DNA of 64,000 nucleotides from Gemmatimonas sp. Lineage in GTDB: Bacteria; Gemmatimonadota; Gemmatimonadetes; Gemmatimonadales; Gemmatimonadaceae. The notes below the pieces were generated by a model, which was not told the DNA's origin, did no database searches, and saw nothing but the letters and a program-made list of their open reading frames with translations. This document shows, piece after piece, positions 36,204-53,902 of the stretch. Where the stretch lies: the NCBI GenBank assembly GCA_965279375.1, contig OZ257156.1, positions 5,152,001-5,216,000 on the forward strand, written 5' to 3'. A program made the position numbers and the translations under genes. Position 1 is the stretch's first letter; every line of letters begins with the position of its first letter.

Positions 36204-36298
36204 GCCCCGAACATGCGTCTTTCTCGCGTGGCGCGCGAGAGGGCGGACCCATAACGTTAGCCCGCGATTCCGCTCTACGGACACTCACCGGGGTACCC

Positions 36299-39200
36299 AT
36301 GCATCTGAAGGTTTGGCGAACGTGCGCACTGCTGCTCGGCGCCGGATTCATCACGGCGGCCGCCGCGTGCCGATCCAAACCCGCCGCATCCCCCGAGGAG
36401 CTCTACAACACGCGCACCCTTGGCCTCGGCTACCTCTACCGCAATCAGTTCGCCGAGGCCGACTCCCAGTTCCGCAAGCTGATCGCGCTCGCGCCAGACG
36501 ATCCGGCCGGGTACGCCAACCTGGGGCTGACCTACCTGCAGTCGGGGCGCTACGCCGACGCCGAGCCGCAGTTGGAGCGGGCGCGCAAGCTCGACCCGAG
36601 CGCGGTGAACGTCTCCCTGATGCTGGCCAAGCTGTACGCGCTGACCGACCGTCCCGCCGACGCCAAGGCGATGCTCGAGGCGCTGCACACCAAGGCCCCA
36701 CGCGATGTGAACGTGCTGTACGGACTGGCTGAGCTGGACTCGAAGCAGACCGACAGCGCGTCGGTTGGCCGCTACGTCGAGCGCCTGCGTGAGCTCCTCG
36801 TCGTCGTGCCAGCCAATCTCGCAGTGCGTGTGAAGCTGCTGGGGGCGCTGTCGCGCGTTGCAGAACCGGACAGCCTGGTGCGCCATCTTGAGGAGATCCG
36901 ACGCATCCCTCCCGAGCCGCCGCGTGAAGCGCGGGTCTACATCGATAGCACGATCGCCCTGCTGCAGGGGGGCCGACGTGTAGAGTCGCAGGCGACGCTC
37001 GATCGTGTGATCTACCTCATCGAGGGCAGCGCGCCGTATCAGGCCGCGCTCGAGAACGTGCGCACGACCGAAGCACCGATTCCGGGCCGTCTGCTGCTCA
37101 ACTTCGCGCCGCGCGATTTCGTCTCGCTGAATGGCGTGCGGACCGAAGCCACGACGGACAGCGCGCGATATGTGGACGCCACTGAGGACGCTGGACTTTC
37201 CGCTGTCGGGACCACCTCCGCGCAGGCGCCGCTGGCGAGCGCGATCGCGTCCGCAGAGATCGACGGCACCAATACGCTGGCGCTGTTCATGTCGCGTTGG
37301 TCGCCCACAGCCGGCAAGTCAGTGGCGCAGCTGTTTCGCGTACAGAGCGGCATGGTGCGCGACGTGACGACGCAGTCGGGCATTTCGCTGCCGCAGGGCG
37401 CGGTGTTCGCCGTCTTTGCCGACTACGACAATGACGGCTGGCTCGATCTCTTCGCGATTGGCGGCGAAGGGCGCGGCCATCTGTTCCGCAACAGTGGGAC
37501 GGGAACCTTCGTCGAGACGACCGCGCAAGCGCGCGTGGGCGACGTTCGCGGCGCACACAAGGCGATCGTCGCGGACCTCGACCACGACGGCGATCTGGAC
37601 CTGATGCTCGTCGGCTCGGGACCGCGTACGGTGTACCGCAACAACCTTGATGGCACGTTCACCGATGCGACGAGCGCGATGGGACTCGCGGCGTCGGACG
37701 CCGGCAGTGCTCAGGCCACCGATGCTGCGTTCGGCGATGTGGATGGCGACGGTCGCACCGACGTGATCGTTGGCAGCGCGACGTCCGGCGGGAGGTTGCT
37801 GCACAACGGCGGAGCACAGCGTTTCAGCGATGTCTCCGATGCGGCCGGCACCGCGAGTGGTGCTGGATTTGCTGCGGTCGCCATCGGCGACTGCAACAAC
37901 GACGGATTTCTCGACGTGGTCGCGCTCGACGCGAAGAGCGGCGCGGTGCTGCTGCTGCTCAACAACGGATCAGGACGCTTTTCGGCAGACCGTCGAGCGA
38001 CGGCCGCGCTCAAGCCGACTGGCAGCGCCGCGAACAGCGTCGCCACTCTCGTGGACTACGACAACGATGGGTGGCTCGATCTCGTCGTCGGCACGTCGGG
38101 TGCACGCGCTGCGAACGCACCGTCGCTCTTTCTGTTCCGCAACGATGGCAGCGGGAAGTTTGTCGATCGGTCTGCCGCGTTACCCACGGCGATGCGCATT
38201 TCGGGTGCTGCGGCGATTACTGTCAGCGATATCGACGATGACGGCGACGAGGACCTTTCCTTGATCGACGCGACTGGCGCCTCACGCATACTGCGCAACG
38301 CGGCGGGCAACGCGAACCTCGGCGTGAACGTGGAGCTCAAGGGGCTGCGTAACGGCAGCGGCAAGAACAACAGCTTCGGGGTTGGTGCGCGCGTGGAACT
38401 ACGTGCCGGTACGCTCTATCAGACACGCGTGGTGACCAACGCCAAGACGCACTTCGGACTGGGGCCGCATCTCAAGGCGGACGTCTTGCGCGTGGAATGG
38501 ACCAACGGCGTACCGCAGACGGTGTTTCTGCCGGGCTCCGATCAGGATGTGGTCGAGCAGGAGATCCTCAAGGGATCCTGCGCGTTTGCATACACATGGG
38601 ATGGCAAGCAATTCCGCTTCGTCACAGACGCCATGTGGCGCAGCGCGTTGGGGATGCCGCTCGGGCTCATGGGAAGCTCGAGCGCGTTCGCACCCGCGGG
38701 TGCATCGCAGGAGTATCTGCGTATCTCGGGCGATGCACTCAAGCCGCGCAACGGCCGCTACGTCATGCAGCTCACCGAAGAGCTCTGGGAGACGGCGTAC
38801 GCCGACGAAGTGAAGCTGCTGACGGTCGATCATCCGGATTCCATCGACGTGTTTGTGGACGAACGCTTCGTGCCGCCGGGCCCGGTGACGCTGCGCCTCT
38901 TCCACGTGGGAAAGCGCGAACTTCCGCGCACCGCCACCGACGCGACAGGGCATGACCTGCTGCCCGCGCTCAAGGCAAGCGACGATGTCTACGTGTCGAA
39001 CTTCGTACCCACGAAATACCAGGGCGTGGTTGAACCACACGAGCTCATTCTCGATCTGCCGGACGTCGCCGGCACACCGGGCAGCGCGCTCTTCCTGCGC
39101 GGCTGGATCTACCCCACCGACGCCAGCATCAATGTCGCGCTCGGCCAGCAAACCGCGCTGAGCGTGTCGCCGCCATCGTTCGAAGTGCGTGACGCGCGCG

Positions 39201-39883
39201 GCCAGTGGAAGACCGTGGTGGCGAACCTCGGATTTCCGTCCGGAAAGGACAAGACGATGGTGATCGACCTGGCGGGCAAGTTCTCAACGGCGGATCGGCA
39301 TGTACGCATCCGTACGAACCTGCAGATTTACTGGGACCAGGCATTCGTCGCGCGCGATCTTCCGGGCAGCAACAGCAAAGTCGAAACGCTGGCGCCCCTG
39401 TCGGCCAACCTGCACGCGCGCGGCTACTCGCGCATGTATCGCAAAGGCGGCCGCTACGGCCCGTATTGGTTCGACTACGCCAACGTGGAGCAGAACGCGC
39501 CGTGGCGTCCGATCACTGGTGCCTTCACCCGCTTTGGGGATGTGTTGCCGCTGTTGGACAAGGCGGACGACATGTACATCATCATGGCGCCCGGCGATGA
39601 AACGACCATCGAGTTCGATGCGCGGTCAGCCGAGTCGCTACCGAAGGGCTGGCGCCGCGATTTCCTGCTCTACACCGACGGCTGGATCAAGGACTCCGAC
39701 CTCAACACGGCGTTCGGTACGACAGTCGAGCCGTTGCCGTACCACGGAATTGGCAGTTACCCGTACGGCCCCACAGACCGCTATCCCACCGACTCTCTGC
39801 GCACGCGCTATCGTCGGGACTACAACACGCGCATCGTCGGCGGTCGGACGCTCGCGCGATCCTCTAACACGGAGCAGCGATGA
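36299..39883 (+). CDS. TPR + FG-GAP/VCBS + ASPIC/UnbV lipoprotein (CRTAC1-like) with a long C-terminal domain
   Basis: AAAC lipobox, TPR-like helices, repeated DYDNDGWLDL / DLDHDGDLDL / DVDGDGRTD, GVGARVEL...HFGLG, KGSCAFAYTWDG. Start set at MHLKV. Confidence 0.88.
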   Translation: MHLKVWRTCALLLGAGFITAAAACRSKPAASPEELYNTRTLGLGYLYRNQFAEADSQFRKLIALAPDDPAGYANLGLTYLQSGRYADAEPQLERARKLDPSAVNVSLMLAKLYALTDRPADAKAMLEALHTKAPRDVNVLYGLAELDSKQTDSASVGRYVERLRELLVVVPANLAVRVKLLGALSRVAEPDSLVRHLEEIRRIPPEPPREARVYIDSTIALLQGGRRVESQATLDRVIYLIEGSAPYQAALENVRTTEAPIPGRLLLNFAPRDFVSLNGVRTEATTDSARYVDATEDAGLSAVGTTSAQAPLASAIASAEIDGTNTLALFMSRWSPTAGKSVAQLFRVQSGMVRDVTTQSGISLPQGAVFAVFADYDNDGWLDLFAIGGEGRGHLFRNSGTGTFVETTAQARVGDVRGAHKAIVADLDHDGDLDLMLVGSGPRTVYRNNLDGTFTDATSAMGLAASDAGSAQATDAAFGDVDGDGRTDVIVGSATSGGRLLHNGGAQRFSDVSDAAGTASGAGFAAVAIGDCNNDGFLDVVALDAKSGAVLLLLNNGSGRFSADRRATAALKPTGSAANSVATLVDYDNDGWLDLVVGTSGARAANAPSLFLFRNDGSGKFVDRSAALPTAMRISGAAAITVSDIDDDGDEDLSLIDATGASRILRNAAGNANLGVNVELKGLRNGSGKNNSFGVGARVELRAGTLYQTRVVTNAKTHFGLGPHLKADVLRVEWTNGVPQTVFLPGSDQDVVEQEILKGSCAFAYTWDGKQFRFVTDAMWRSALGMPLGLMGSSSAFAPAGASQEYLRISGDALKPRNGRYVMQLTEELWETAYADEVKLLTVDHPDSIDVFVDERFVPPGPVTLRLFHVGKRELPRTATDATGHDLLPALKASDDVYVSNFVPTKYQGVVEPHELILDLPDVAGTPGSALFLRGWIYPTDASINVALGQQTALSVSPPSFEVRDARGQWKTVVANLGFPSGKDKTMVIDLAGKFSTADRHVRIRTNLQIYWDQAFVARDLPGSNSKVETLAPLSANLHARGYSRMYRKGGRYGPYWFDYANVEQNAPWRPITGAFTRFGDVLPLLDKADDMYIIMAPGDETTIEFDARSAESLPKGWRRDFLLYTDGWIKDSDLNTAFGTTVEPLPYHGIGSYPYGPTDRYPTDSLRTRYRRDYNTRIVGGRTLARSSNTEQR

Positions 39884-40833
39884 CTCGCCAACTGACGACA
39901 GGCGCACCGATGCGTCGACCCACCGCGCTGCACTCGCTGCTGGCCGCGAGCCTCTGTCTTGCCACGAGCGTTGGTGCGCAGACCACATCCGCGACTGCCG
40001 GTGCAAAGCCCGCCGCGCTCGGCGACTTCCGCGCACCAATGGGCGTGCAGCTGTGGACGTTCCGAGAGCAGGCCAAGCCCGATCCGGCCGCGATGTTTCG
40101 GATGGCCCGCAAGATGGGCATCACGCACGTGGAGACGGCGGGACTCTACGACATGCCAGTGGCCAAGTTCGCCGCTGCGCTCAAGACGGCGGGGCTGCGG
40201 GCGACGTCGATGCACGTGGGATACGACGACCTCAAGAAGTCGCCTGATGTTGTCATCGCCAATGCCAAAGCGCTCGGAGCGCAGTACGTGGGCATCGCGT
40301 GGTATCCGCACGAAGGTGCGTTCACCGAGGCCGATGCGCGCAAGGCGATCGCCGACTTCAATGCGTTCGGTCGCACGCTCAAGAGCGCCGGGCTCAAGTT
40401 CTTCTACCACAACCACGGCTACGAGCCGGTCCCGTTCGGTAAGGGGACGCTCCTCGACCTGATCATCGACCAGACCGATCCGGCGCTCGTGTCATTCGAG
40501 ATGGACGTACTATGGACTTGGCTGCCGAACGTAGATCCTGTGGCACTGATCCGGCGTCATCCCGGACGTTTCCGCCTCATGCACATCAAGGATATGCGTC
40601 CCGGAATCGCGCGTGGCTCGCTCTCTGGCGGCCTGCCCGCAGAGCAGCAGGCCGTGATCGGACAGGGACAGGTGAACTGGCCTGAACTGCTCGCTGCGGC
40701 GCAGCGTGACGGCTTCGCCTTCTACTACCTCGAAGATGAGACCACCGATCCGGTGAAGAACGTCCCGCCGAGCATCTCGTATCTGACACAGCTCAAGTAC
40801 CCGTCCAACGCTGCCACCGGCGCGCGCAAGTAG
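39880..40833 (+). CDS. Secreted sugar-phosphate isomerase/epimerase (xylose-isomerase-like TIM barrel)
   Basis: Signal peptide; GVQLWTFR, YHNHGYE, FEMDVLW, MHIKDM, GQGQVNW, YLEDE; ATGA overlap with the upstream gene. Confidence 0.88.
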   Translation: MTRQLTTGAPMRRPTALHSLLAASLCLATSVGAQTTSATAGAKPAALGDFRAPMGVQLWTFREQAKPDPAAMFRMARKMGITHVETAGLYDMPVAKFAAALKTAGLRATSMHVGYDDLKKSPDVVIANAKALGAQYVGIAWYPHEGAFTEADARKAIADFNAFGRTLKSAGLKFFYHNHGYEPVPFGKGTLLDLIIDQTDPALVSFEMDVLWTWLPNVDPVALIRRHPGRFRLMHIKDMRPGIARGSLSGGLPAEQQAVIGQGQVNWPELLAAAQRDGFAFYYLEDETTDPVKNVPPSISYLTQLKYPSNAATGARK

Positions 40834-40862: not shown

Positions 40863-42473
40863 TTAGACGAACACAGGTTCTGGGCCCAGACCACGCAGTC
40901 CAGGCAACGCCTCGATCAGCGCTTCACGAGATAGACCAAGCAACGCGTGGCGCTCGACGAGCACGTCGAGATCCACCGGGTACATGTTCTGCCGCGCAGC
41001 GTCCGCCAAACCGGCGACGTTGCGCGGTTCGAGCATCCGGGTCAGCCATTCGGTAAACTCTCGTCGCTCCGCTGCGCTGCCGATGTCGCCGCGACCGTTG
41101 GTGATGGCGCGCAGGCGGCGCAGTGACTCCTGTGGCAGCTCCACCAACACGCTGTCGTCTACGCCGAGAAATCCGCGCCAGGCCACGTCAGCCGTTGGCG
41201 CGATGCGCTGTTGCGTTTCGGCGTACGACACGGTGACGAAGTAGAGCATCGCCTGCGCAGCGAACAGGTCGAAATGCGCCATCGCTTCGTATGCGCCCGC
41301 CACGACGCGATCGATCTGCGTGGCCTCGCGATCGAGCGCGGAGGCGTAGCGAGCGAGCACCGGCGCCGATGGAAGGCGCGTACTGTTTGCGGCCGCTTCG
41401 AACTCGAGCGCGAGGCGTTCGATCGCACGCAGGCTCCACGCGATCCCCGACGAGAACAGCGGATCGACGAAGGCGTACGCATGCGGCAGCATCGCCCAGC
41501 GCGCCCCGGCCGCATGCGTGAGCCTATGTTGTTGCGCCGGTTGAAAGGCAATCGGTCGCAGTGGAACGGCATCGGCGTACGCGCTCGAGATGGTCGGATA
41601 TCGTTGCAGCAACGCCCGCCAGATCTCCTCGGCGCCGGCGTCGTCTCCGATTTGCAGCGACGCGAGTCCGTGCGGCGTGAGCGAGAAGCCCGCGCTCGTG
41701 ACGCCGTCGTCGAAGCGCAGGGCGTACATCCACCCCTCGTCGATGAGGTGGTGTACCGCAGCCCAATCGTCAGGGTACGGACCTGGTGGCAGCCCATTCA
41801 CCACCTCGGGCATGCGCTTCACGCCGGTGAAGTGACTGTACACCACCGCGGATTTCGTCTCGGTGTGCGTGACGGCAGATGGCAGCGAAAGCTGGCGCGC
41901 GAGAAAGCCGCCGGGTCCCGTCGCGTCGATGAGGAAGTTGGCGCGAAGCGAAAATTGCTCGCCGTGGCGACTTCCGCGCAGCTGAATGCCGTCGGCGTCG
42001 AAGTCCGCTCCGAGCACGTCTGCGCCATCGCGATAGTCCACCCCAGCGTCGATCGCCTGCCGCACGAAATGGTGATCGACATCAGCGCGCATCCAATGCG
42101 TGTCGGCCAGCGCGTCATCGGGGCTCGCTGCAACGAGCAGGCGCTCGGACGACATGCCGCGATTCTCGAACGCCTCGTGTGGATGATGCCGATAGAAGGT
42201 GAACCCGCGTTTGAGGCCGCGCCGCACCTCCGGCAGATGCGTAATCCAACGACCGTGCGTGGCGAGCTGGTAGCAGTCTTCGAGACCGTAGCGAACACCC
42301 AGCCGCTCCAGCGAAAGATTGCCGAGTGGTGTGGTGGACTCGCCGATGGCAAAGCGCGGGTGCGAGCCGCGTTCCAGCATCATCACGCGGTATCCGAGCT
42401 TGGCGAGAATGCGCGCGAGCAGCGAACCGGCGAAGCCGCTGCCGACGATCAGGACTTCACAGGCATCCGTCAT
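40863..42473 (-). CDS. FAD-dependent halogenase-like flavoprotein (PrnC-like)
   Basis: IVGSGFAG, HPRFAIGES, GLKRGFTF (candidate catalytic Lys), RADVD, IDATG, FVDPLFSSG; GWMYALRF in place of WxWxIP. Confidence 0.85.
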   Translation of the reverse strand: MTDACEVLIVGSGFAGSLLARILAKLGYRVMMLERGSHPRFAIGESTTPLGNLSLERLGVRYGLEDCYQLATHGRWITHLPEVRRGLKRGFTFYRHHPHEAFENRGMSSERLLVAASPDDALADTHWMRADVDHHFVRQAIDAGVDYRDGADVLGADFDADGIQLRGSRHGEQFSLRANFLIDATGPGGFLARQLSLPSAVTHTETKSAVVYSHFTGVKRMPEVVNGLPPGPYPDDWAAVHHLIDEGWMYALRFDDGVTSAGFSLTPHGLASLQIGDDAGAEEIWRALLQRYPTISSAYADAVPLRPIAFQPAQQHRLTHAAGARWAMLPHAYAFVDPLFSSGIAWSLRAIERLALEFEAAANSTRLPSAPVLARYASALDREATQIDRVVAGAYEAMAHFDLFAAQAMLYFVTVSYAETQQRIAPTADVAWRGFLGVDDSVLVELPQESLRRLRAITNGRGDIGSAAERREFTEWLTRMLEPRNVAGLADAARQNMYPVDLDVLVERHALLGLSREALIEALPGLRGLGPEPVFV

Positions 42474-43444
42474 ACCGCAACGCTCGCTGCGTCGCAGCGG
42501 GCGCAGGCAACGGCGGGTTCCAGTATTCCTGACACGTTCTGCCGATGCAAACGTGCAACGCGATCAGCGCGACAGTGCTCACACGCGGGCAGTCGTTCGG
42601 CGTCCCACATGTCGGCGGTGATGACGGCTGGAGACACTCCCAGACATTGATCGAGCGCTCGCTCTAGGTCACGAAGCGTGGGCGGCGTGAAGTGTCCGAG
42701 CGCTTGCAAGCGCTCGATCTCGCCATTGCCACCGCGTACCGGAATGATGGATACCACGCTCGCGCCACGAGCGGCGGCGTACTCCACGGTGCGGACCGTC
42801 CACTCGATCGATGCGTCCGCCGGCACGTACGGAGCCCCCAGCAACACGAACACGCGCAGGTCGATGTCGTTCTCGCCAAGCAAGTCCGCCGCGCGCGCGA
42901 ACGCATCGAGATCGAGTCGCTTGTTGAGATGCGCGGTCGCTGTGGGTTCGATCGTCTCCAGTCCAACCGCGACTTCCAGGCGGCTGCCGATGCGACGCGC
43001 GAAGTCTATTGTGGCCGGACCAATGGTGTTGACGTGCGACTCTACGGTGAGCGCGCTGTACGCATTCGTGATCTCCACAATGCGCGGCACGTCATCCGGT
43101 GGCACCGCGCGTTTGTCGAAGAAATTGCTCGCATTGTAGAACTTGATGCGATCCGGTCGAGGGCCCGAGTGCTCACGCAGCGCCTGTTCCAACTGCCTGG
43201 GCAGCGCTCCGAGTGGTGTGGGCCCATCAATGGTGTACTGCCACAGATCGCAGAACGAACAGGTGAACGGACATTCCGCGCCCGACAAGAACACGGTCAG
43301 TGCGCGTTCGATCGTGCCATCGGGGCGTCGTTCGTCTTCCAGCGTGCTGCCCTGCGGCGTGAACGCGTCGATGGCGCGCTTGGCCGGCCGCAGGGAGCGA
43401 ATGCGTCGATCGGCGTCCGTCGCGCTCTCACGGAGCGAACTCAC
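42470..43444 (-). CDS. Radical SAM protein, TIGR01210/RaSEA-like
   Basis: CPFTCSFC (CxxxCxxC), IKFYNASNFFD, VESH, EVAVGLET, LNKR; C-terminal CEHC...CARC; GTGA and ATGA overlaps. Confidence 0.85.
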   Translation of the reverse strand: MSSLRESATDADRRIRSLRPAKRAIDAFTPQGSTLEDERRPDGTIERALTVFLSGAECPFTCSFCDLWQYTIDGPTPLGALPRQLEQALREHSGPRPDRIKFYNASNFFDKRAVPPDDVPRIVEITNAYSALTVESHVNTIGPATIDFARRIGSRLEVAVGLETIEPTATAHLNKRLDLDAFARAADLLGENDIDLRVFVLLGAPYVPADASIEWTVRTVEYAAARGASVVSIIPVRGGNGEIERLQALGHFTPPTLRDLERALDQCLGVSPAVITADMWDAERLPACEHCRADRVARLHRQNVSGILEPAVACARCDAASVAV

Positions 43445-44775
43445 ACGGAGCGTGCGTACAGTGTCTCGAAGTGACCGCGATAGCGCGCTTCGTTACGCGG
43501 GAACAGTTCGTCCACGCGGGACGCTGCCACCGATCCATGCTGAAAGCGTCGCTTCTCGAACACCGGCATCTCGATGCCAAGCACCGCGCGAATGCCACGC
43601 GAGACGACTTCGCCCTTGAGCGCGTACAACCGCTCGTGCGAACCCGAGGTCAGCTCCGCAAATGGCAACGCTTCGGCAACCGCGATCACCGACGGACGCG
43701 TGTAGGGGCTGAAGGACTCGAAGCCGTACTCCCGCGCGCAAGCGAAGGCGCGCACGCAGCCGCGGCTGTAGCCACCCGAGTAGGTGAGCGAATGCTTGAT
43801 CGACTCCACGCCCCACCCTTCCTGATAGAGCATGCGGTTGTTCACGACACTCCGGATGGTGAGCTCGCGGTTTTCCTCGATGGGATAGTCCTTGAGATTC
43901 TCGTCGCCACCGTCGCCATCCACCAGCAGCTTCCACTCCGGATAGCGCTCTCTGATGCCGGCAAGCAGCGCGAGATTCACGACCGCGCACTCGACATCCA
44001 GTGGCTTGTAGTCCTCGATGACTGCCACGGCGCGCAACGGATCGAGCGCACTCGACGCAACGTCGATGACTTCGCCAAGCATCTCGAGATTGGTGCGGCG
44101 CAGGAACTCACGCGCCTGCTTCGCGTCTTCGCCTTCCCCGTCGACCGACAGGGTGAACGCCTTGAGCCGCGCCGGTGATTGCCCTTCGTTGAGGAGCAGC
44201 GCGTTCAGACAGAGCAGGATCGCACCGCTGTCGATCCCACCGGAGAAGGGCACGCCGATCGGCGCGGACGGGTCCTGCACGGACAGCCAGCGACGCAGCG
44301 ACTCGTACAGCGCCTCGATGTAGCGGCGGCCGGCGCCATCGAGATCGGTGGAGACGCTGTTGCGCGATGGCTCGAAGAAGCGCCGATGCACCGGATTCGG
44401 ATCGGGACAGCCGATCAGCCGCAGCGTCGTCACGTGGTGCGCGGGCACCATGCGCGTGTAGCTCGGATGGAACTGGTCCAACCAGCCGTGTCGCGCCAGC
44501 TCTGCCGCAATCTCGTCGATTCGTTCGGCGACAATGAGTACCGGGCCCGCAACGGCCTTGGCCAGGAAGTAGCGCATGGGGCGGTCGAGACTGCGCGCGA
44601 GCAGCACGCGCTCGCCGTCCTGCGCCATCAAGGCGAACGACCCTTCGATGGCGAGCACCGCGTCGGCGTTGGTGTCGAGCAGCAGGCGGCAGGCGTCAGC
44701 GGAGCTCATCGACCACAGACGCTGCGACTCGTCGGCGATGAGATTGATGACGTTGGCGATGTAGAGTTGAGACAT
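43441..44775 (-). CDS. Asparagine-synthetase-like ATP-dependent ligase lacking the N-terminal glutaminase Cys
   Basis: GSFAL, ARSLDRPMRY (degenerate Ntn domain), FSGGIDSG PP-loop, DGDGGDE, SPY, KRRFQHG. Start at MSQLY; the track ORF's upstream extension is antisense to the next gene. Confidence 0.85.
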   Translation of the reverse strand: MSQLYIANVINLIADESQRLWSMSSADACRLLLDTNADAVLAIEGSFALMAQDGERVLLARSLDRPMRYFLAKAVAGPVLIVAERIDEIAAELARHGWLDQFHPSYTRMVPAHHVTTLRLIGCPDPNPVHRRFFEPSRNSVSTDLDGAGRRYIEALYESLRRWLSVQDPSAPIGVPFSGGIDSGAILLCLNALLLNEGQSPARLKAFTLSVDGEGEDAKQAREFLRRTNLEMLGEVIDVASSALDPLRAVAVIEDYKPLDVECAVVNLALLAGIRERYPEWKLLVDGDGGDENLKDYPIEENRELTIRSVVNNRMLYQEGWGVESIKHSLTYSGGYSRGCVRAFACAREYGFESFSPYTRPSVIAVAEALPFAELTSGSHERLYALKGEVVSRGIRAVLGIEMPVFEKRRFQHGSVAASRVDELFPRNEARYRGHFETLYARSV

Positions 44776-44934
44776 GGCCAAAAAGTATCGATCGCCATCG
44801 AGCGCGACTAGTCGAAATGCACGCTCGGCGTACCTTGACGAAGCGCACCATCGACCGTAGTGATGCCGAGGTACTGGTGCGGTACCGCCGTGTCCGTCGG
44901 CACACGGTGCGTGCGTCCTTCCTCCGTCCCTCCC

Positions 44935-47900
44935 ATGAACATCGTGTTGCACATCGTGTTCGAGACGATTGCACGCCTTTGCTCCCCGCGACGTACCGCG
45001 GGTGTCGCCGCTCTGCTCTGCCTCGGCGGCTGCAGCACCGCCTCGGAACCGCCGGTCTTCAGGCTCCTGGATGCCGGCAAGACAGGCGTGGACTTCGCAA
45101 ACACGATCACCACGTCCGATTCGCTGAACGCGCAGAGCGACCCGTACGTGTACAACGGCGCTGGCGTCGCCGTGGGGGATATCGACAATGACGGGCGCCC
45201 GGACCTGTTCTTTGCCGGCAACATGGTCTCGAGCCGTCTTTACCTGAACAAGGGCGAGATGCGCTTCGAGGACATCACCACGGCGGCCGGCGTGCGTACC
45301 TCGCGCTGGGCGACAGGGGTGACGATGGCGGACATCAACAGCGACGGCTGGCTGGACGTGTACGTCGCCGTGTCCGGTCCGCCGTGGGCCAAGGGCGCAG
45401 ATCGCACCAATCAGCTCTTCATCAACAACCACGACCGCACCTTCACGGAGTCCGCCGCGAAGTACGGCGTTGCCGACAGCAGCTTCACCACGCACTCGGC
45501 GTTGCTGGACTACGACCGCGACGGTTGTCTCGATCTCTTCCTGCTGAACAACGCGCCGACCGATTTTGCACGCGGCGACGGGGGCATGGGCTCCGCCAAC
45601 CGAAAGGGGCAGTCGCCGGGCAGTCTCAACGTGCTCTATCGCAACGACTGCCACGGACACTTTACCGACGTCTCGCTGCAGGCAGGCATCGTTCCGGTCC
45701 CGGGGTACGGACTCGGCGTTGCCGTTGCCGATATCAACGGAGACAGCTGGCCCGACATCTACGTGTCGAACGACATCGGCCCCAACGATGTGCTGTACGT
45801 GAACAATCGCGACGGCACGTTCACGGACAAGGCGGCCCAGTCGCTCAAGCACACGAGTCTTGCCGGCATGGGCGTCGACATCGCCGACTTCAACAACGAC
45901 GGCTGGCCGGACATCGTGCAGGTGGACATGTGGCCGTCCGACCTGACGCGTCGCAAGCGCATGAGCGGGTTCGCCACGTACGATGGGCAGCTCGCCGCGC
46001 GCAGCCGCGGCATCCGCGAGGATGTCAGCGCCAACGTGCTGCAGCTGAGCAACGGCGTCACGCCCAGCGGAGATGTCGTCTTCAGCGATGTCGCGCAGAT
46101 GGCCGGCGTTGCCGCCACCGATTGGAGCTGGAGCGCGCTCTTCGCCGACTTCGACAACGATGGTCTCAAGGACATTTTCATCGGCAACGGCTACCCCAAG
46201 GCGGTCAATGACCTGGACTACCAGACCGCTGCGAATGGAGCGGTGCGCGCGGGCGACACACAGCGCGCACTCAAGTTGCTGAGCGATCTGTACGCCTACG
46301 AATTACCCAACTACGTCTTCCGCAACAACGGCGACCTCACCTTCTCCGATCAGAGCAAGGCGTGGGGTATCGACAAGCCGGGGTTTGCCTATGGCGCGGC
46401 CTACGCCGATCTCGATGGCGATGGCAAGCTGGATCTCGTCGTCAATAACATCGACGGACCCGCGTCGATCTACCACAACGTGCGCCCGACCGATGAAACG
46501 CATCACTTCCTCGCGATCCGGTTGCAGGGCGACTCGCTCAACACGCACGGCATTGGCGCATCGATCGCACTCAGCGCCGGCGGCGTCCAGCAGCATCTCT
46601 ACAACGCGCCGTCGCGTGGTTTCATGTCGAGCATGGATGGCCCGCTCCATTTCGGACTCGGCGGCGCCAACCGCGTAGACACGGTCGCCGTGGTGTGGCC
46701 GGATGGACGGCGACAGCTGTTGACGAATCTCGCAGCGGATCGCGTCGTGGACGTGAAGTGGGCGGACGCCTCGCCACCTACTGCGGGATCTGTCACGCCG
46801 ACGACGTCATCGAAGGTTGCCGCGACCGAACAGTATTTCACGCAGGCCGATGCCTCACAGGGACTCGCGTTCACGCCGCGCCCACCGTCGCTCGTGGACT
46901 TCCACGTGCAACCGCTGCTGCACTACATGCCGTCCCGCCAAGGGCCGCCCACTGCCGTTGGCGATGTGAACGGCGATGGGCTCGACGATGTCTTCGTTGG
47001 CGGCGGCAGCCGTGCGCCTGGCACCCTGCTCGTGCAACAGAAGGACGGACGTTTCGTGGCCTCCACACAGAACCAGCCGTGGACGGCAGACTCGCTGTTC
47101 GACGATTGGGGCGCGCTGTTCTTCGATGCAAATGGCGACGGACGCCCCGACCTGTACGTCGCGAGTGGCGGCTATCAACTCGCGCCCAACTCCCCGCTGC
47201 TGCAGGATCGACTCTATCTCAACACGGGAACGGGCGCCTTCGTCAACGCGCCGGCCAACGCGCTCCCAGCCATGCCAACGAGCACCGCTGCGGTGCGTGC
47301 TGGCGACTTCAATGGCGATGGCAAGCTCGATCTCTTTGTGGGCGGACGCCTGTCACCTCGCGAGTATCCATCGCCCGCTCGCAGCTACGTACTGCGCAAC
47401 GACGGCGATCACTTCACCGACGTGACCGGCGAGGTCGCGCCGGAGTTGGCGAAGCCGATCGGCATGATCACGGATGCGACGTGGGTCGACTTCGATGGCG
47501 ACGGCAAGCTGGATCTCGTCACGGTGGGCGAGTGGATGCCCATCGACTTCTACCGCAACGAAGGGACCCGCCTGCGCAACGTCACGAGCTCGATGAAGCT
47601 TCCGCCGCAGCGCGGCTGGTGGTACAGCCTGGCGGTGGCCGACGTGGACAAGGATGGTCGTCCGGATCTCGTGGCCGGCAACGTTGGACTCAACGTGGCG
47701 TATCAGGCGACGCCCGAGAGCAAGTTCGGCATCTACGCATCGCCGTTCACCGGCGGACAGAACACCGACATCGTGCTGACGCAGCAAGTCGGTCCCAAGG
47801 AAGTCCCCATCGCGTCGCTGGCGACACTCGGCCACGAGATGTACACGCTCGGCGTGAAGTTCCCGACGTACGGCTCGTTCGCGTCAGCGTCGATGGATCA

Positions 47901-48357
47901 ACTCTTCGGGCAGTCCGAACTTCAGCGCGCAGTGCACTATCAGGCCGACACGTTTGCGAGCGTGCTGCTGCACAATGACGGCAACGGCGCGTTCAGCGCC
48001 ACGCCGCTACCATCACTCGCGCAGGCATCACCGATTCGCGGCATCGCGCCGGTGGACGTGGACGGCGACGGCCATCTCGATCTCGTTGTCGCCGGAAACC
48101 TGTACGACATTGAGCCGAACACGCCGAGGGCGGACGCGGGGAACGGGGTCTGGCTGCGTGGCGATGGGCGTGCGCATTTCACTGCGGTATCGCCGCGCGA
48201 GAGCGGCTTTCTTGCACCACACAACGCGGCAGGGCTGGCGCTGCTCACTACCACGGCCGGCAAGTCACTGCTCGTGGCCAACACGGGCGATGCGCTGCAG
48301 CTCTTCTCACTCGGCAAACGCAAACACGGCACCGGTACCGAAGTACCAGTGCCGTGA
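44935..48357 (+). CDS. FG-GAP/VCBS repeat + ASPIC/UnbV lipoprotein
   Basis: LGGC lipobox; YNGAGVAVGDIDNDG, many DxNxDGxxD repeats, TDWSWSALFADFDNDG, RGFMSS...HFGLG; second propeller at the C-terminus. Confidence 0.9.
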   Translation: MNIVLHIVFETIARLCSPRRTAGVAALLCLGGCSTASEPPVFRLLDAGKTGVDFANTITTSDSLNAQSDPYVYNGAGVAVGDIDNDGRPDLFFAGNMVSSRLYLNKGEMRFEDITTAAGVRTSRWATGVTMADINSDGWLDVYVAVSGPPWAKGADRTNQLFINNHDRTFTESAAKYGVADSSFTTHSALLDYDRDGCLDLFLLNNAPTDFARGDGGMGSANRKGQSPGSLNVLYRNDCHGHFTDVSLQAGIVPVPGYGLGVAVADINGDSWPDIYVSNDIGPNDVLYVNNRDGTFTDKAAQSLKHTSLAGMGVDIADFNNDGWPDIVQVDMWPSDLTRRKRMSGFATYDGQLAARSRGIREDVSANVLQLSNGVTPSGDVVFSDVAQMAGVAATDWSWSALFADFDNDGLKDIFIGNGYPKAVNDLDYQTAANGAVRAGDTQRALKLLSDLYAYELPNYVFRNNGDLTFSDQSKAWGIDKPGFAYGAAYADLDGDGKLDLVVNNIDGPASIYHNVRPTDETHHFLAIRLQGDSLNTHGIGASIALSAGGVQQHLYNAPSRGFMSSMDGPLHFGLGGANRVDTVAVVWPDGRRQLLTNLAADRVVDVKWADASPPTAGSVTPTTSSKVAATEQYFTQADASQGLAFTPRPPSLVDFHVQPLLHYMPSRQGPPTAVGDVNGDGLDDVFVGGGSRAPGTLLVQQKDGRFVASTQNQPWTADSLFDDWGALFFDANGDGRPDLYVASGGYQLAPNSPLLQDRLYLNTGTGAFVNAPANALPAMPTSTAAVRAGDFNGDGKLDLFVGGRLSPREYPSPARSYVLRNDGDHFTDVTGEVAPELAKPIGMITDATWVDFDGDGKLDLVTVGEWMPIDFYRNEGTRLRNVTSSMKLPPQRGWWYSLAVADVDKDGRPDLVAGNVGLNVAYQATPESKFGIYASPFTGGQNTDIVLTQQVGPKEVPIASLATLGHEMYTLGVKFPTYGSFASASMDQLFGQSELQRAVHYQADTFASVLLHNDGNGAFSATPLPSLAQASPIRGIAPVDVDGDGHLDLVVAGNLYDIEPNTPRADAGNGVWLRGDGRAHFTAVSPRESGFLAPHNAAGLALLTTTAGKSLLVANTGDALQLFSLGKRKHGTGTEVPVP

Positions 48358-48393: not shown

Positions 48394-50166
48394 TTACCAG
48401 CCGGTGTTCTGCGTGAGCCCTGCGCCCTTCGCCTTGCTCAGCTGCACCTGAATCTGCGGGATCGGGAACAGCGCATGGCGCGCGGCCACGGCGGCGGCAC
48501 CACCAAGCTGCAGGCGACGCGTCTTCTCGACGGCCAAGTAGGAGTTGAGCACCGACTCCGCGATACCCCAACGACGCAGGTCGAAGAAGCGGGTGCCTTC
48601 CATGGCCAGTTCGAGGCGGCGTTCGTCGCGCACGGCGGCGCGAGCGACCGTCTGCGAGGTCCACGGCGTGGTGTAGAGTCCGATCTTGTAGTTCGCCCAC
48701 GTGATCCGAGGATCGTTGATGGGCACCGCAATCGACGCGACATCCGTTCCGGGGCCCTGCACGCGCGCACCGGCGCGAGTGCGAACTTCGTTCACGATGG
48801 CGCGCGCGGTTTCCATCGAGCCGGCTTCCACTTCTGCTTCCGCCAGCAACAGCAGCGCATCGGCGTAGCGGAAGATGTGTATGTTCACCGCGTTCAGCTG
48901 CGTGTTGTTCCAGCCGACGGAGCTGACGGCACCGCTGGCCTTCTCGTGCATGTTCTTCTTGTTGCTGTACGGGCCACCGTACGAGGCTGAACGAATCCAA
49001 TCCGGCGCGTGCGGGCCCCAGTCCTTGTACGGCACGCCGTCGCGACCGACCGTGTAGTCGAGGCGCGGGTCAACCGGCGTCTTGTTGGAGGAGGTGAAGT
49101 TCGCGTTGTTGGCGTTCCAGGCCGCGTTCGTCTGCGACGCCGGCAATCCGGTGTTCGGATCGGTGGCGAAGAAGTTGACGAGGTTCTGCGACGGCTGATG
49201 GAAGCCGCAGCAACCGAACGGGCTGCCCGAGTGCGGAAAGGTGAGACGTCCACCGTAGTTGGAGTTCGTGCCGTCCGCCTGACCGTCGTTGGCCGATGCC
49301 TGATAGGCCAGGATCGTCTCACGACCGTTCTCGTACTGCGAGAAGCCCGTCCACACGCGATCGTAGCTGGCTTCGAGAGCGTACGGTCCGGTGGCGCGCA
49401 CTTCGCGAAGCGTGGTCAGCGCCGCGGCGTACTCGGCGTTGAACATCTGCACGCGTCCCTTGTACGCCTTGGCCGTCCACGAGGTGACACGAGCGACGTC
49501 GCTGTTGCGCGGGGTTGCCGGCAGCAGCGCGATCGCGGCGTCGAGGTCCTTGATGATTTCCTTCGCCGCTTCGGCCTTGGTGATGTTGGGCTTGGCGAAG
49601 TCGGTGTCCGTCTCGCGGTAGTACGGGATGTTGCCCCACATCTTCCACGCTTCGAAGTGATAGTGCGCGCGGAGGAAGAGGGCCTCGCCTTCGATACCCT
49701 TCTGGTCCGCCGTCGAAATTTCCGACGGCTTCGCGGCGACGACATCCTTGAGCAGCTTGATCGTGGCGTTGGCGCGAACGACCCCTTCGTACGTCGCGCG
49801 CCACTTGTCATTCAGCTCGCTTTCCACGCCCGGCGCCGACCACTGATACTGCTCGATCGGGTCGATGTTGGGCTGGTCGGTGGCTTCCGAACCCTTGTAG
49901 GCGTCGTCGCTGGCAACGCTGCCCCAGATCCAGTTGCTCGCGGCGGAGCCCCATGCTCCGCCGACACCGCTCGTGAAGTCGAGCTGACGGTACGCGGCCA
50001 TCAGCGTGCCTTCGACGCCGGCCTTGTTCTGAAGGGTTCCGGCATCGAGCGTGCCCTGCGGCACGGAGGCGTCGGTCAGGAACTGGTCGCACCCGTAGAA
50101 CACGCCCGCCGACAGCGTCAGCAGTACCATGCCGAGGAGCGCTGGCTTCCTCGATCCGTATGTCAT
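48394..50166 (-). CDS. RagB/SusD-family lipoprotein
   Basis: FYGC lipobox, GEALFLRAHYHF, WGNIPY, FRYADALLLLAEA, ERRLELAMEGTRFFDLRRWG, LTQNTGW. Confidence 0.95.
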   Translation of the reverse strand: MTYGSRKPALLGMVLLTLSAGVFYGCDQFLTDASVPQGTLDAGTLQNKAGVEGTLMAAYRQLDFTSGVGGAWGSAASNWIWGSVASDDAYKGSEATDQPNIDPIEQYQWSAPGVESELNDKWRATYEGVVRANATIKLLKDVVAAKPSEISTADQKGIEGEALFLRAHYHFEAWKMWGNIPYYRETDTDFAKPNITKAEAAKEIIKDLDAAIALLPATPRNSDVARVTSWTAKAYKGRVQMFNAEYAAALTTLREVRATGPYALEASYDRVWTGFSQYENGRETILAYQASANDGQADGTNSNYGGRLTFPHSGSPFGCCGFHQPSQNLVNFFATDPNTGLPASQTNAAWNANNANFTSSNKTPVDPRLDYTVGRDGVPYKDWGPHAPDWIRSASYGGPYSNKKNMHEKASGAVSSVGWNNTQLNAVNIHIFRYADALLLLAEAEVEAGSMETARAIVNEVRTRAGARVQGPGTDVASIAVPINDPRITWANYKIGLYTTPWTSQTVARAAVRDERRLELAMEGTRFFDLRRWGIAESVLNSYLAVEKTRRLQLGGAAAVAARHALFPIPQIQVQLSKAKGAGLTQNTGW

Positions 50167-50196
50167 CGTCGTCCTCTGATTGGAGTATTTCATCGG

Positions 50197-53100: not shown

Positions 53101-53433
53101 CGTGATGTCGATGCGGGTCCGCCCCTCAACATTGGCCTGTGCGGGTCGCTTGCCGAACGCCACATACGTGAGCACGGCGGTCGACGGCGCTTGAATGGTG
53201 TAACGCCCGTTGTCTGTCGTGAGCGCGCGGACTTCCGTGCCCCGAACGTTCACCGTGACGCCGGAGATCGGCGCACCGGTGGTACTTGTGACCGTTCCGC
53301 TCACTGTGACCGTCTGAGCTTGCGCGGCCGTGCTCGCAGCGAGCGAGAGCATCAGCACGAACCGGGCGACACGCCAGCCCGAATGGGGCCGACTTCCGCG
53401 CGATCGAGGCACCGACAACAGCGTGTCCATCAT
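50197..53433 (-). CDS. SusC/RagA-family TonB-dependent transporter
   Basis: VRIRGISSF, PLYVIDGVP, LKDASASSIYGSRASNGVILIETTKRG, RRDGSSR, LKWEE, terminal Phe; GAGGAG RBS before ATG at 53433. Confidence 0.96.
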   Translation of the reverse strand: MMDTLLSVPRSRGSRPHSGWRVARFVLMLSLAASTAAQAQTVTVSGTVTSTTGAPISGVTVNVRGTEVRALTTDNGRYTIQAPSTAVLTYVAFGKRPAQANVEGRTRIDITMESVAYLEQLVVTAYTETRRSEITGAVASLDVDAAKRETGASILKRLDAVPGITVATSGSPGSRSTVRIRGISSFQNNDPLYVIDGVPVQDSYINFLNPNDITSIQVLKDASASSIYGSRASNGVILIETTKRGASGPPKMTATIRTGMANPVNGYDKFLITDALDYYKVVKTSYENAGLPVPTNIYGDPKNPTVPQYTFAATDTRAGTDAFGRPSGVDPAKYSYPNSLIMPGSAGTNWWKAVFGDPGKVTDANLSITGAGAGNQYGVSFNYFNQDGTAAYSNFRRISVRANTQFTRNKLTFGENIGISAERQFGGLPDDQGGETDLIGKNILMQPVVPIYDIRGNFASGKAVGLGNNTNPLKTAYEARNNITKNNRVFGNIFAGFTVNPQISLRSSLGFSVNQGGFTGYSAITPENSEPSFSNSINENQSQSSDWTWSNTAKYSKQFSSHSLSVLVGQEANAGTNRFLGASQANLLSTDLAARYIQDALADAKTKAVNSTGGESALLSYFGKADYNFDEKYIASLTVRRDGSSRLGETNRWGTFPAAGLGWRISKEKFLTGNKIVSDAMLRVGYGVTGNQSIPSGRTLNQFGGSNGDTYYDITGSNTTVRAGYRQTSLGNSNLKWEENRSTNFGADLSLFESNLSVIIDVYERATNNLLFDPALPGTAGIAAPPIVNIGKMSNKGFDISLGHQGNSWNASLQLSRYKNKIVSIDGQQDFFYGPISTRIGNAIINQVGQPIGSFYGLKADGFFKDAADVSAHARQDGAAPGRIKFVDVNGDKQITAADRTIIGSPHPNFTSSFDVGYRHGNWDLSASVFGSFGNKIFDAQKDFYIFRDFSTNVRKDLLENSWTPTNQNAKYPRLDQNDTYSKAISSYYVEDGSYVRMRTLQLGYNVPASMARWISATRVYVQAENLFTITGYNGLDPSLPTANVFGAAGDIRDQFRGVDRGVYPSNRTFSLGITTSF

Positions 53434-53902
53434 TCTCCTCCAGAATCCACGTGGGTGGGAACCTCGACGCGTCTGGACCGCATACTGCCGGGCCGCAGAC
53501 CGGGGTGGAGCCCGGCCGACGACGATCACCGATGGTCGGCGACCGACCTTGCCTGAACAGCACTGGTGCAACGCGGGCGCCGCAAACTCCCATCACGTGG
53601 AGAAAGGGGATGCGCGGCTGGGGGCGGTGGCGGGGCGAAACGAGAGGTGGGAGTCAGCGAGGCGGGACGGAGCGACGTGGTGCAATGAAGCCGACGGGAC
53701 GGTCTGACTTGCTACTGGGGTGGACCGCGCCAGACTGATGCCGGACCACTTTCTGCCAATTGGTCCCTAGGTACGGCCCGCAGAGCGTCTTGTCAAGAAG
53801 TCTTCGTCACGCCCTTGCGTCCGCTGGCCGTTCTTCGCAGTTCTCAGGGACGACTTTGCACAGTCGGATCGGATAGCGACCTCGACCGCGGAGGATCTTC
53901 CC

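Follow-up and report, generated by a model that had tools for sequence, protein, structure and literature searches.

Beta-lactam synthetase is an intramolecular enzyme. Radical removal of an amino-acid adduct is described for tRNA: in a passage of PMC11298593, RaSEA turns a lysine adduct into archaeosine, and a section of 10.64898/2026.05.18.725915 describes MnmL/YhcC trimming a glycine adduct. The flavin-dependent halogenase PltM acts on free phenols, according to part of PMC8407142.

Here, we analysed a 64,000-nucleotide stretch of Gemmatimonas sp. DNA (the window) in which an AsnB-like ligase, a RaSEA-like radical SAM enzyme and a halogenase-like flavoenzyme are encoded by three consecutive genes. 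The first-pass annotation placed these genes on the minus strand with two 4-bp overlaps, and its coordinates were reproduced exactly: GTGA at 43444-43441 joins the ligase and radical SAM genes, and ATGA at 42473-42470 joins the radical SAM and flavoenzyme genes. The features of the locus are as follows.

43441..44775, minus strand: predicted glutaminase-less ATP-dependent amide ligase of the AsnB/beta-lactam-synthetase fold, 444 aa, core gene (Pfam/NCBIfam, structure model)
44227..44244, minus strand: PP-loop motif SGGIDS of the ligase, residues 178-183
42470..43444, minus strand: radical SAM enzyme of a RaSEA sister family, 324 aa, with a Cys-rich C-terminal tail, core gene (TIGR01210 below cut-off)
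43250..43273, minus strand: radical SAM CxxxCxxC cluster motif, C58/C62/C65
40863..42473, minus strand: flavoenzyme of the PltM/tetracycline-7-halogenase type, 536 aa, accessory gene (PDB sequence matches; Lys88 and FxDPxxSxG retained; WMYALR in place of WxWxIP)
36299..39883, plus strand: predicted lipoprotein with TPR, FG-GAP and ASPIC/UnbV regions (lipobox-like AAAC; domain matches)
38564..39883, plus strand: unnamed C-terminal domain (CTD) of the lipoprotein, about 430 aa, subtype A (K858, W880, W930, Q1008, P1039)
39880..40833, plus strand: gene for an IolE-like TIM barrel, convergent with the trio (29 bp between them)
44860..48357, plus strand: FG-GAP/ASPIC-UnbV protein, divergent from the ligase, a frequent neighbour (33 of 112 loci)
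48394..53571, minus strand: SusD-like and SusC/RagA TonB-dependent pair, a frequent neighbour at Gemmatimonadota loci

The three enzymes almost certainly belong to one pathway. Their genes stand in the same order at 55 of 57 informative loci, these being loci flanked on each side by 1.5 kb or more, drawn from the best 80 of 589 matches and biased to close relatives. Among 201 genomes of the planctomycete phylum, ligase, radical SAM enzyme and flavoenzyme occur in an identical set of six; in three of these the genes are scattered, on separate contigs or 236-308 kb apart, and all three are still kept. The coupling is well beyond chance, and the single conserved pathway and conserved gene neighbourhood expected at first pass are borne out both by synteny and by co-occurrence where the operon is broken up. 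A ligase gene without the radical SAM gene was never seen in the 201-genome sample searched for both, and no flavoenzyme was found in six genomes having the pair. Because the flavoenzyme is dispensable, the system is a core pair with an accessory enzyme and not the obligate trio supposed earlier. The radical SAM family is encoded on at least 589 GTDB stretches (one genome per species) from Gemmatimonadota, Acidobacteriota, planctomycetes, Bacteroidia and Deltaproteobacteria, lineages that live mainly in soil and sediment and from which few metabolites are known. Its occurrence is patchy (16/201, 6/201, 4/201 and 12/163 genomes in four samples; 0/5 in other genomes of the window's genus), and phyla are intermixed in the ligase tree. 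In one genome, G046 of genus g25, another cassette occupies the slot of the trio.

The ligase matched Pfam Asn_synthase at 38.4 bits in the profile search proposed earlier. As first described, it contains the SGGxDS PP-loop and no N-terminal Cys; its relatives share the same start position, and therefore the glutaminase N-terminus is genuinely missing and not lost through a start-site error. The features of an ATP pyrophosphatase of this fold are present, namely SGGxDS, an acidic GxGxDE, a C-terminal Lys and two domains. DGDGGDE, which aligns with SGEGSDE of ASNS, occurs in 90 of 92 sequences, and K408, which we take to be the equivalent of the AsnB catalytic Lys, lies within KxRFQxG in all 92. 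The structure model (pLDDT 86) returned beta-lactam synthetase as the top Foldseek match (E 1.4e-14, TM ~0.6), followed by ASNS/AsnB and then carbapenam synthetase. The model thus supports an amide ligase lacking glutaminase, with beta-lactam synthetase as the closest fold, and the enzyme very probably forms an amide bond. An ammonia-dependent asparagine synthetase flanked by bystander genes would fit the Pfam match and the best PDB sequence matches, which are human ASNS; it is hardly credible in view of a TIGR01536 score of 39.7 bits against a cut-off of 267.1, the presence of the radical SAM gene in every ligase-bearing genome of the 201-genome sample, and three Cys-type AsnB-like genes lying elsewhere in the window's genome, which uphold the earlier distinction from the cell's asparagine synthetase. 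Beta-lactam synthetase proper, which closes carboxyethylarginine or carboxymethylproline intramolecularly as part of a clavam or carbapenem cluster, is unlikely, the neighbouring genes including none of such a cluster and the aligned identity being 14-19%. A lasso cyclase was ruled against, as no conserved small ORF (at least 40 aa), RRE or protease lies beside the trio at 96 loci.

The radical SAM enzyme had been matched by eye to TIGR01210. The motifs CPFTCSFC, KFYNASNFFD, VESH and EVAVGLET are indeed present, and TIGR01210 is the nearest named family and the single NCBIfam match. However, the score was 61.6 bits against a cut-off of 212.15, with 74.8-108.9 bits for seven relatives versus 291-396 for nine metagenome RaSEA controls. 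A quick tree with long outgroup branches set 27 family rows apart by a split with an SH-aLRT of 95 and nine RaSEA rows by another (97); a position outside TIGR01210 was among the outcomes named at first pass as refuting its proposal. Much of the core is shared with the nine true RaSEA sequences: 17 conserved positions are common, among them C58, C62, C65, K101, F108, D110, E135, G161, L162, E163, C288 and C291, so that the cluster cysteines, GLE, K-x-x-x-x-x-x-F-x-D and the C-terminal CxxC are all retained. By sequence, the enzyme belongs to a sister family of RaSEA and is not a member. It and RaSEA disagree at 13 conserved positions, of which several lie on barrel strands (R to H137, K to R197, Y to F199, N to I234), and it has Cx3CxxC in place of the Cx4CxxC of the RaSEA sequences displayed, so its chemistry may differ; C-N trimming is close to an even call, falling slightly on the doubtful side. 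The best fold match is Elp3, and TIGR01212 reached only 21 bits on one family member. Databases label the enzyme "archaeosine synthase beta-subunit" or "TIGR01210 family" and the ligase "asparagine synthase"; both labels fail membership tests. Remoter RaSEA-like enzymes are encoded on Streptomyces plasmids, in clusters that also specify a P450, a glycosyltransferase and a serine hydroxymethyltransferase.

All named relatives of the radical SAM enzyme (RaSEA, MnmL/YtqA, Elp3) act on tRNA, and the genes survive scattering as housekeeping genes do. This would suit an undescribed tRNA or nucleoside modification in which the radical SAM enzyme trims an amino acid that the ligase has put on a carboxylated base, comparable to the archaeosine and mnm5U routes. 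Yet the patchy occurrence argues against it, the AsnB-fold ligase model matched TtuA-type tRNA enzymes at a TM of only 0.25, and no tRNA or que gene is among the conserved neighbours. The median pI values of 5.8 and 6.0 also argue against it, an argument that is weak because true RaSEA spans 5.7-9.4. A tRNA role would further leave the free-substrate halogenase and the lipoprotein partner unexplained, and it appears improbable.

For the flavoenzyme, the earlier description as PrnC-like was right about the halogenase type, and the catalytic Lys is retained; PrnC itself is absent from the 18 PDB matches, of which PltM (160 bits, E 7e-46) and tetracycline 7-halogenase (142 bits, E 2e-40) are the best. 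GxGxxG is present as GSGFAG together with Fx.Px.Sx.G, and K88, presumably the catalytic Lys by its role in PltM, lines up with the Lys in GIKLGF of PltM. GxKRGF is kept in 80 of 82 sequences and FxDPxxSxG in 66 of 82 by strict pattern; an unaltered WxWxIP occurs in just 2 of the 82. In a family profile, the subfamily scored 1e-127 or better and other PltM-like proteins 1e-70 to 1e-90. Judged from these sequence features, the enzyme probably halogenates. The motifs are named as in PMC10377541 and PMC8407142; a passage of the latter proposes that WxWxIP blocks monooxygenation. The altered WxWxIP, and the loss of the flavoenzyme and not of the other two, would also agree with an aerobic counterpart of the radical SAM enzyme that either hydroxylates or carries out the same C-N trimming, much as MnmC1 works alongside YhcC; a portion of 10.64898/2026.05.18.725915 reports that E. 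coli has both a FAD enzyme dependent on O2 and a radical SAM enzyme for one and the same trimming step. This is a long shot: the flavoenzyme groups with PltM and tetracycline 7-halogenase, MnmC gave only 17 bits, and WxWxIP is also missing from several true halogenases, as stated in a section of PMC8407142. The quinone-cofactor maturases QhpG (the top NCBIfam match, a CTQ maturase), GoxB and LodB were ruled against, scoring 69.5, 34.4 and 33.7 bits, below curated cut-offs of 240, 400 and 400.

At the loci compared, none of the conserved neighbours of the trio encodes a flavin reductase, an exporter, a regulator or an enzyme of amino-acid supply, and the IolE-like gene is not conserved beside it. 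Nor do these neighbours include a gene resembling ArcS, the partner with which RaSEA works in a complex on preQ0-Lys tRNA. ASPIC/UnbV FG-GAP proteins (18 of 112 loci) and an NQR2/RnfD-like membrane protein of 280-300 aa (22 of 112) are frequent neighbours; the RnfD-like protein had no match anywhere in the window's own genome. A DAHP synthase (447.6 bits, above cut-off) lies at 2 of 4 loci in the order of genome G202, and in that order only. At Thermoanaerobaculia loci, the trio stands alone among housekeeping genes. This isolation, the mixing of phyla as with mobile clusters, the Streptomyces plasmid clusters and the intramolecular enzyme heading the ligase fold matches are consistent with a stand-alone secondary-metabolite cassette for lactam closure or joining of two building blocks, other radical tailoring and halogenation, its tie to the lipoprotein reflecting only common habitat and common genomic islands. 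Retention of the trio after dispersal would be odd for a disposable cluster, and the distribution of the lipoprotein also counts against such a cassette, which we regard as rather unlikely.

The lipoprotein frame is open from 35999, with a likely start at 36299; the gene is single-copy in the window's genome and lies 1 kb downstream of the trio. Searches of Pfam, NCBIfam, PHROGs and the PDB brought up nothing convincing for its CTD. The CTD occurs in 35 of 38 radical-SAM genomes (14/16, 6/6, 4/4 and 11/12 by sample; no match in the other 3) versus 163 of 766 genomes overall (40/201, 57/201, 4/201 and 62/163), and in the order of G202 it is confined to exactly the 4 of 201 genomes having the radical SAM enzyme. 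Trio genomes mostly carry one CTD subtype: within the planctomycete phylum the W motif is found in 6/6 versus 1/24, and within the phylum of genome G608 in 18/21 rows versus 5/30. The lipoprotein, subtype A included, is nevertheless encoded by many genomes that lack the trio, and related genomes are not independent, so shared lifestyle could explain part of this nesting. A functional tie between trio and lipoprotein is likely; this link, absent from the first-pass annotation, is new here.

Subtype A is marked by K858 (92% vs 0%), W880 (97% vs 0%) and W930 (99% vs 0%), and S860-C861 is universal. These residues may suggest that the enzymes modify the lipoprotein before export, forming a CTQ/TTQ-like cofactor or cross-link from K858, W880, W930 and S860-C861. 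The QhpG match would agree, as would the ligase N-domain, conserved like the synthetase domain (36/101 vs 85/251 near-invariant positions) as a binding surface might be. However, K858 is missing in 4 of 6 trio-bearing planctomycete genomes, the trio is often missing where subtype A occurs (32 of 77 subtype-A rows), and PltM far outscores QhpG, albeit in different programs. The lipoprotein resembles a Sec lipoprotein, whereas the trio is without signal peptides by eye and hydropathy. Moreover, ligase and CTD distances are uncorrelated across phyla (rho 0.016, 585 pairs), a result easier to square with a metabolic tie than with a physical one. Modification of the lipoprotein is quite improbable.

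Our best, tentative reading is a cytoplasmic module that ligates, then trims and in some lineages halogenates a small aromatic acid, which would serve the FG-GAP/UnbV envelope system. The ligase would adenylate a carboxylic acid (ATP to AMP and PPi) and couple it to an organic amine; since the enzyme is unable to free ammonia from glutamine, the likeliest partner is an amino acid, for instance Lys or Gly. The radical SAM enzyme would then take a hydrogen beside the new amide nitrogen and break the C-N linkage so that a primary amide or amine remains, by analogy with RaSEA and MnmL/YhcC on tRNA amino-acid adducts. In some lineages, the flavoenzyme would use O2 to halogenate the free scaffold on an electron-rich ring. 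The case for an aromatic small-molecule substrate is evenly balanced, a small aromatic acid being the most likely scaffold. The TPR/FG-GAP/UnbV lipoprotein, with its unnamed CTD, would handle the product or a precursor. A more far-reaching and doubtful proposal casts the pair, with the optional halogenase, as the cytoplasmic part of an envelope system that is widespread and so far undescribed, producing a new halogenated amide cofactor or signal, or a new protein-derived cofactor on Lys/Trp/Trp/Cys of the lipoprotein. That system may comprise the lipoprotein, a UnbV/UnbU-like pair, a multihaem cytochrome, an AhpD-like selenoprotein and SusC/D.

The ligase/radical SAM/halogenase-like module represents a widespread undescribed pathway. 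Its three soluble enzymes, encoded in 3.9 kb, are simple to co-express, and therefore a role of RaSEA-type chemistry outside tRNA is directly testable, and so is the function of the FG-GAP/UnbV lipoproteins, an abundant and uncharacterised group. Lineages without the flavoenzyme, and G046 with its other cassette, offer natural contrasts, and the flavoenzyme may add a new halogenase subfamily from organisms relevant to soil organohalogens. If the envelope-system reading is true, archaeosine-type radical chemistry would here be seen for the first time at work outside tRNA, and a first handle on bacterial CRTAC1/UnbV proteins would be gained.

In comparison with known systems, the ligase shares with beta-lactam synthetase and CarA the AsnB fold without glutaminase, the PP-loop, the acidic GxGxDE and the C-terminal Lys motif. 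It differs in its low identity, its TM of 0.52-0.65, its short and strongly conserved N-domain and its invariable place beside a radical SAM gene, away from carbapenem or clavam genes. The flavoenzyme has GESTTP, Lys88 and FxDPxxSxG in common with PltM and tetracycline 7-halogenase (PrnC-type), but forms its own subfamily with mostly WxYxL(R/P) for WxWxIP and no PKS or NRPS neighbour. UnbV (E4) and UnbU (E5) are, we assume, enediyne cassette proteins, a cassette not found in our literature searches; the ASPIC/UnbV FG-GAP neighbours and, as putative UnbU counterparts, the NQR2/RnfD-like ones resemble them, whereas no enediyne PKS or thioesterase was seen near the trio. Compared with ArcS and RaSEA, the radical SAM enzyme belongs to a family scoring 61.6-108.9 bits against 212, in a separate clan with Cx3CxxC and 13 changed positions; its partner is an AsnB-fold ATP ligase and not the TGT-like ArcS, and the trio is bacterial and patchy, with no tRNA link in the gene neighbourhoods. 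RaSEA is nevertheless its nearest named family, with the 17 positions and a Cys-rich tail in common, and here too the radical SAM enzyme is paired with an enzyme able in principle to install an amino-acid adduct. Finally, MnmEG with MnmL/YhcC (TIGR01212) and MnmC1 acts on tRNA and uses an MnmC-type rather than a halogenase-type flavoenzyme, but it shares the proposed logic, in which an adduct is trimmed by an Elp3-like radical SAM enzyme with an O2-dependent flavoenzyme alongside.

The three genes studied here encode a ligase of the AsnB/beta-lactam-synthetase fold, a radical SAM protein related to RaSEA (the radical SAM enzyme of archaeal archaeosine synthesis) and a flavoenzyme of the halogenase type. 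As the first-pass annotation had described, they lie on the minus strand and are joined by GTGA and ATGA overlaps; both the coordinates and the joints were found again in the sequence.

Genes of the trio (all open reading frames)
44775-43441, minus strand: ligase, 444 aa
43444-42470, minus strand: radical SAM protein, 324 aa
42473-40863, minus strand: flavoenzyme, 536 aa

The trio is bordered upstream by a divergent FG-GAP gene and downstream by a converging IolE-like gene. The genome carrying the window is a single 5.31-Mb contig, and the GC content of the trio (0.647) is in line with that of the genome (0.654). A riboswitch was found neither in the window nor in the 14 loci scanned, promoter and terminator scans performed no better than chance, and no match was obtained for the ligase on the plasmids searched or for the radical SAM protein in the phages searched. 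Six longer ligase relatives, considered as fusion proteins, look like read-through or frameshift products, with out-of-frame sequence preceding or separating the domains, and do not count as evidence of fusion; the inspected case of an in-frame TAG among the radical SAM matches of g25 (the genus of genome G046) is a true stop.

Relatives of the radical SAM protein are encoded by at least 589 of at least 600 matched stretches (one genome per species). The best 80 of these 589, a set biased to close relatives, comprise Gemmatimonadota, Acidobacteriota, one planctomycete, one Bacteroidia and one Deltaproteobacteria record. Among them, 57 loci possess flanks of 1.5 kb or more on each side; the ligase is present in 56, and the order ligase, radical SAM protein, flavoenzyme, which the annotation had proposed for a neighbourhood check, recurs in 55, one of which carries a 4.4-kb insertion. 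The ligase is the best-conserved member (54-84% identity). Across 201 sampled genomes of the planctomycete phylum, strong matches of all three profiles fell in the same six genomes, or about five independent cases, since two of the six are near-identical; a seventh genome has a distant radical SAM protein only (66.6 bits), and in four more the only matches are shorter PltM-like proteins. The genes lie on three contigs in G323 and G205, the flavoenzyme is about 308 and 236 kb away from the other two in the single-contig genomes G300 and G275, and it occupies a different contig from them in G406. Because of the synteny, the co-occurrence within genomes and a link that outlasts the break-up of the operon, the trio is almost certainly one pathway.

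Within this pathway, the ligase and radical SAM protein form the constant pair. In the order of the Bacteroidia record G202, the radical SAM protein occurs in 4 of 201 genomes with the ligase adjoining in each, and no match of the flavoenzyme profile fell below E 2e-5. For the phylum of G608, 12/12 loci have the ligase adjacent and 10/12 the flavoenzyme (unpublished G640 left out), and a genome-wide profile search of the remaining two gave no match. The same profile does detect the flavoenzyme in other genomes; as the genomes without a match are drafts, the absences are to be read only as "not found". Should the order of G202 be the Bacteroidales, which are mostly anaerobic, loss of the flavoenzyme would fit an O2-dependent enzyme.

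The predicted ligase model (pLDDT 86) best matches beta-lactam synthetase, followed by ASNS/AsnB and carbapenam synthetase. The reported lack of the N-terminal Cys and retention of the PP-loop were both seen in the sequence. DGDGGDE, which aligns with SGEGSDE of ASNS, is present in 90/92 ligase sequences and KxRFQxG in all 92. The shortened N-domain, which contains an invariant GCPDP, equals the synthetase domain in conservation (near-invariant at 36/101 versus 85/251 positions), which hints at a surface for binding or for a second function. Plain asparagine synthesis by the ligase is highly improbable: it scores 39.7 bits, compared with an AsnB cut-off of 267. At other sites the genome has three AsnB-like genes of the Cys type, and also QueC. 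At L091:17224-19382, roughly 5 kb away from the trio, lies another full-length AsnB-like gene, followed by a 77-aa ORF that by eye resembles a lasso precursor.

The radical SAM model (pLDDT 96) matches Elp3 best, though weakly (TM ~0.5). TIGR01210, to which the protein had been assigned, is its nearest family, but membership did not hold: the window protein and seven relatives scored 61.6-108.9 bits, against 291-396 for nine RaSEA controls. These controls came from metagenomes, where 80 listed loci yielded 50 motif-bearing frames, 13 complete proteins and 11 after thinning, of which nine were used. A quick tree of 43 rows, with long outgroup branches, placed 27 family rows (support 95) and nine RaSEA rows (97) in separate groups; 17 conserved positions are common to both and 13 have changed. 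Together, the score gap, tree and changed positions make the family a sister of RaSEA; judged on sequence, it is not an RaSEA, although it possibly works like one.

In the same quick tree, two Streptomyces plasmid proteins (173 bits, below the cut-off) lie closer to RaSEA than the window family does. They are encoded first in clusters on pFRL5 and pFRL3 (L224:14968-26112, L225:14680-25826) with genes for a P450, serine hydroxymethyltransferase, GT9 glycosyltransferase, carbamoyltransferase and heptose functions, a second bacterial use of the RaSEA-like clade. A distant RaSEA-like domain (43 bits) also forms the C-terminus of a 671-aa protein in G231 (L140:2419-7012); its gene comes after one for an AAA ATPase, and the region is rich in insertions.

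RaSEA releases piperideine as a by-product. It converts a lysine adduct to archaeosine and forms an obligate complex with ArcS (PMC11298593). A glycine adduct is trimmed by MnmL/YhcC, with YhcC acting under anaerobic and an FAD enzyme under aerobic conditions (10.64898/2026.05.18.725915). A role of the trio in tRNA modification, for which these systems would speak, is unlikely. That the flavoenzyme is an aerobic stand-in appears slightly less likely still, given on one side the FAD enzyme of glycine trimming and on the other the halogenase features of the protein.

The nearest solved relatives of the flavoenzyme are PltM and tetracycline 7-halogenase. It retains Lys88 and FxDPxxSxG, and WxWxIP is unaltered in only 2/82 flavoenzymes. 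According to a review, several true halogenases lack WxWxIP, Fx.Px.Sx.G marks the active ones, and PltM halogenates free phenols (PMC8407142; PMC10377541). The flavoenzyme is a likely halogenase. Two Acidobacteriaceae loci carry, immediately upstream of the trio, an additional, distant flavoenzyme from the halogenase/reductase superfamily (L117:6385-7680, L119:6218-7600). A nitroreductase-family gene (Pfam), whose motif we take to recall iodotyrosine deiodinase, lies a few kb downstream in Multivorans-type loci (L107:16433-17131 and eight others); this may be mere synteny.

Clustering of neighbours across 96 loci revealed FG-GAP/ASPIC-UnbV genes in 48, besides SusC/D pairs, an RnfD-like membrane protein, an AhpD-like gene and multihaem cytochromes. 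Next to many Gemmatimonadota loci, the AhpD-like gene is interrupted by an in-frame TGA in C-x-x-stop, as seen in the three cases checked (L065:7981-8600, L046:13150-13770, L043:9500-10300), and likely encodes a CxxU selenoprotein; unsplit copies with Cys occur in L186 and near position 2,147,924 of the window's genome. DAHP synthase, flanked by two genes for branched-chain/urea-type substrate-binding proteins, adjoins the lipoprotein gene and the pair (L185:17204-19850, L186:1-2437). Three genes directly downstream of the trio in L036 (1317-4003) presumably correspond, by their motifs, to LarC, LarE and LarB, and a LarE-like gene lies near the trio in L026 as well. Divergent from the lipoprotein gene, window 34839-36284 (minus strand) encodes a class V PLP enzyme, best matched in NCBIfam by the periplasmic pyoverdine-tailoring PvdN (128 bits, cut-off 650); a related gene lies near the trio in L113.

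The lipoprotein itself is a predicted TPR/FG-GAP/UnbV protein (36299-39883, plus strand) whose C-terminal domain (CTD, 430 aa) is unnamed; the gene is present once in the genome, and its end lies 1 kb from the trio. The CTD occurs in 35/38 radical-SAM genomes versus 163/766 genomes overall, and in 31/34 once the four centre genomes are set aside.

CTD in radical-SAM genomes versus background
Own phylum: 14/16 versus 40/201
Planctomycete phylum: 6/6 versus 57/201
Order of G202: 4/4 versus 4/201
Phylum of G608: 11/12 versus 62/163 (12/13 and 65/166 with unpublished G640, G665 and G768, on which no claim relies)

The hypergeometric values are small, but overstated, because related genomes do not count as independent cases and trio-adjacent CTDs were used to build the profile. 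Nine further trio genomes (G608 being the tenth) all contain the CTD, mostly distant from the trio; the radical-SAM genomes lacking a match (G073, G152 and G724) are all drafts. In a tree of 126 CTDs, subtypes A and B separate with support 97: A contains 45 rows from trio genomes and 32 from genomes without the trio, and B 47 rows without it and two extra copies in trio genomes, where the trio-less CTDs (24/51 for the planctomycete phylum, 30/51 for the phylum of G608) were picked mostly among higher scores, so that the sampling favours A among these. Subtype A is marked by K858, W880, W930, Q1008 and P1039. The trio persists almost only where subtype A occurs. Ligase and CTD distances show no between-phylum correlation (rho 0.016; 585 pairs, 41 genomes), which speaks against co-transfer with the lipoprotein; therefore, the trio moved independently. 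The correlations inside phyla (rho 0.44 and 0.53) can be explained by shared ancestry. The converse fails: subtype A is present and the ligase search without a match in G046, G131, G082, G248 and G657; in G046 (L204:4797-9420), a multihaem cytochrome and an 839-aa UnbV-like gene take the trio slot of its congeners, a natural cassette swap.

Searches of PDB sequences, Pfam, NCBIfam and PHROGs gave nothing convincing for the CTD, and its best 120 homologues are named only "hypothetical", CRTAC1 or ASPIC/UnbV. Its invariant polar residues (window 38564-39883; S860-C861, E931, D936, D944-H945, W1112-D1113, K1231, D1234) give it the appearance of a separate enzyme domain. The co-occurrence might also mean that the trio modifies the lipoprotein itself, which is improbable: the Lys of LKGSC, considered as the modified residue, is missing in 4/6 trio planctomycete genomes. 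In Thermoanaerobaculia, the trio stands amid housekeeping genes, as a stand-alone metabolite cassette with other radical chemistry could; set beside the CTD association, this reading is conceivable, if doubtful.

We tentatively favour a ligate-then-trim route on a small molecule. The ligase would adenylate an acid and form an amide with an amino acid, the radical SAM protein would cleave the C-N bond to leave a primary amide or amine, the flavoenzyme could finally halogenate an aromatic ring, and the lipoprotein system would handle the product or a precursor. There is a thin indication of an aromatic substrate, because of the likeness to PltM and the DAHP synthase in 2/4 loci of the order of G202. 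In the mostly non-subscription literature searched, we found no published link among the trio families and nothing on UnbV/UnbU function. All three enzymes represent new subfamilies of known folds, and the system would be categorically new if its link to the envelope system turns out to be chemical. The ligate-then-trim logic is already known from tRNA, where RaSEA and MnmL/YhcC act on an adduct; our proposal borrows this logic for a small molecule.
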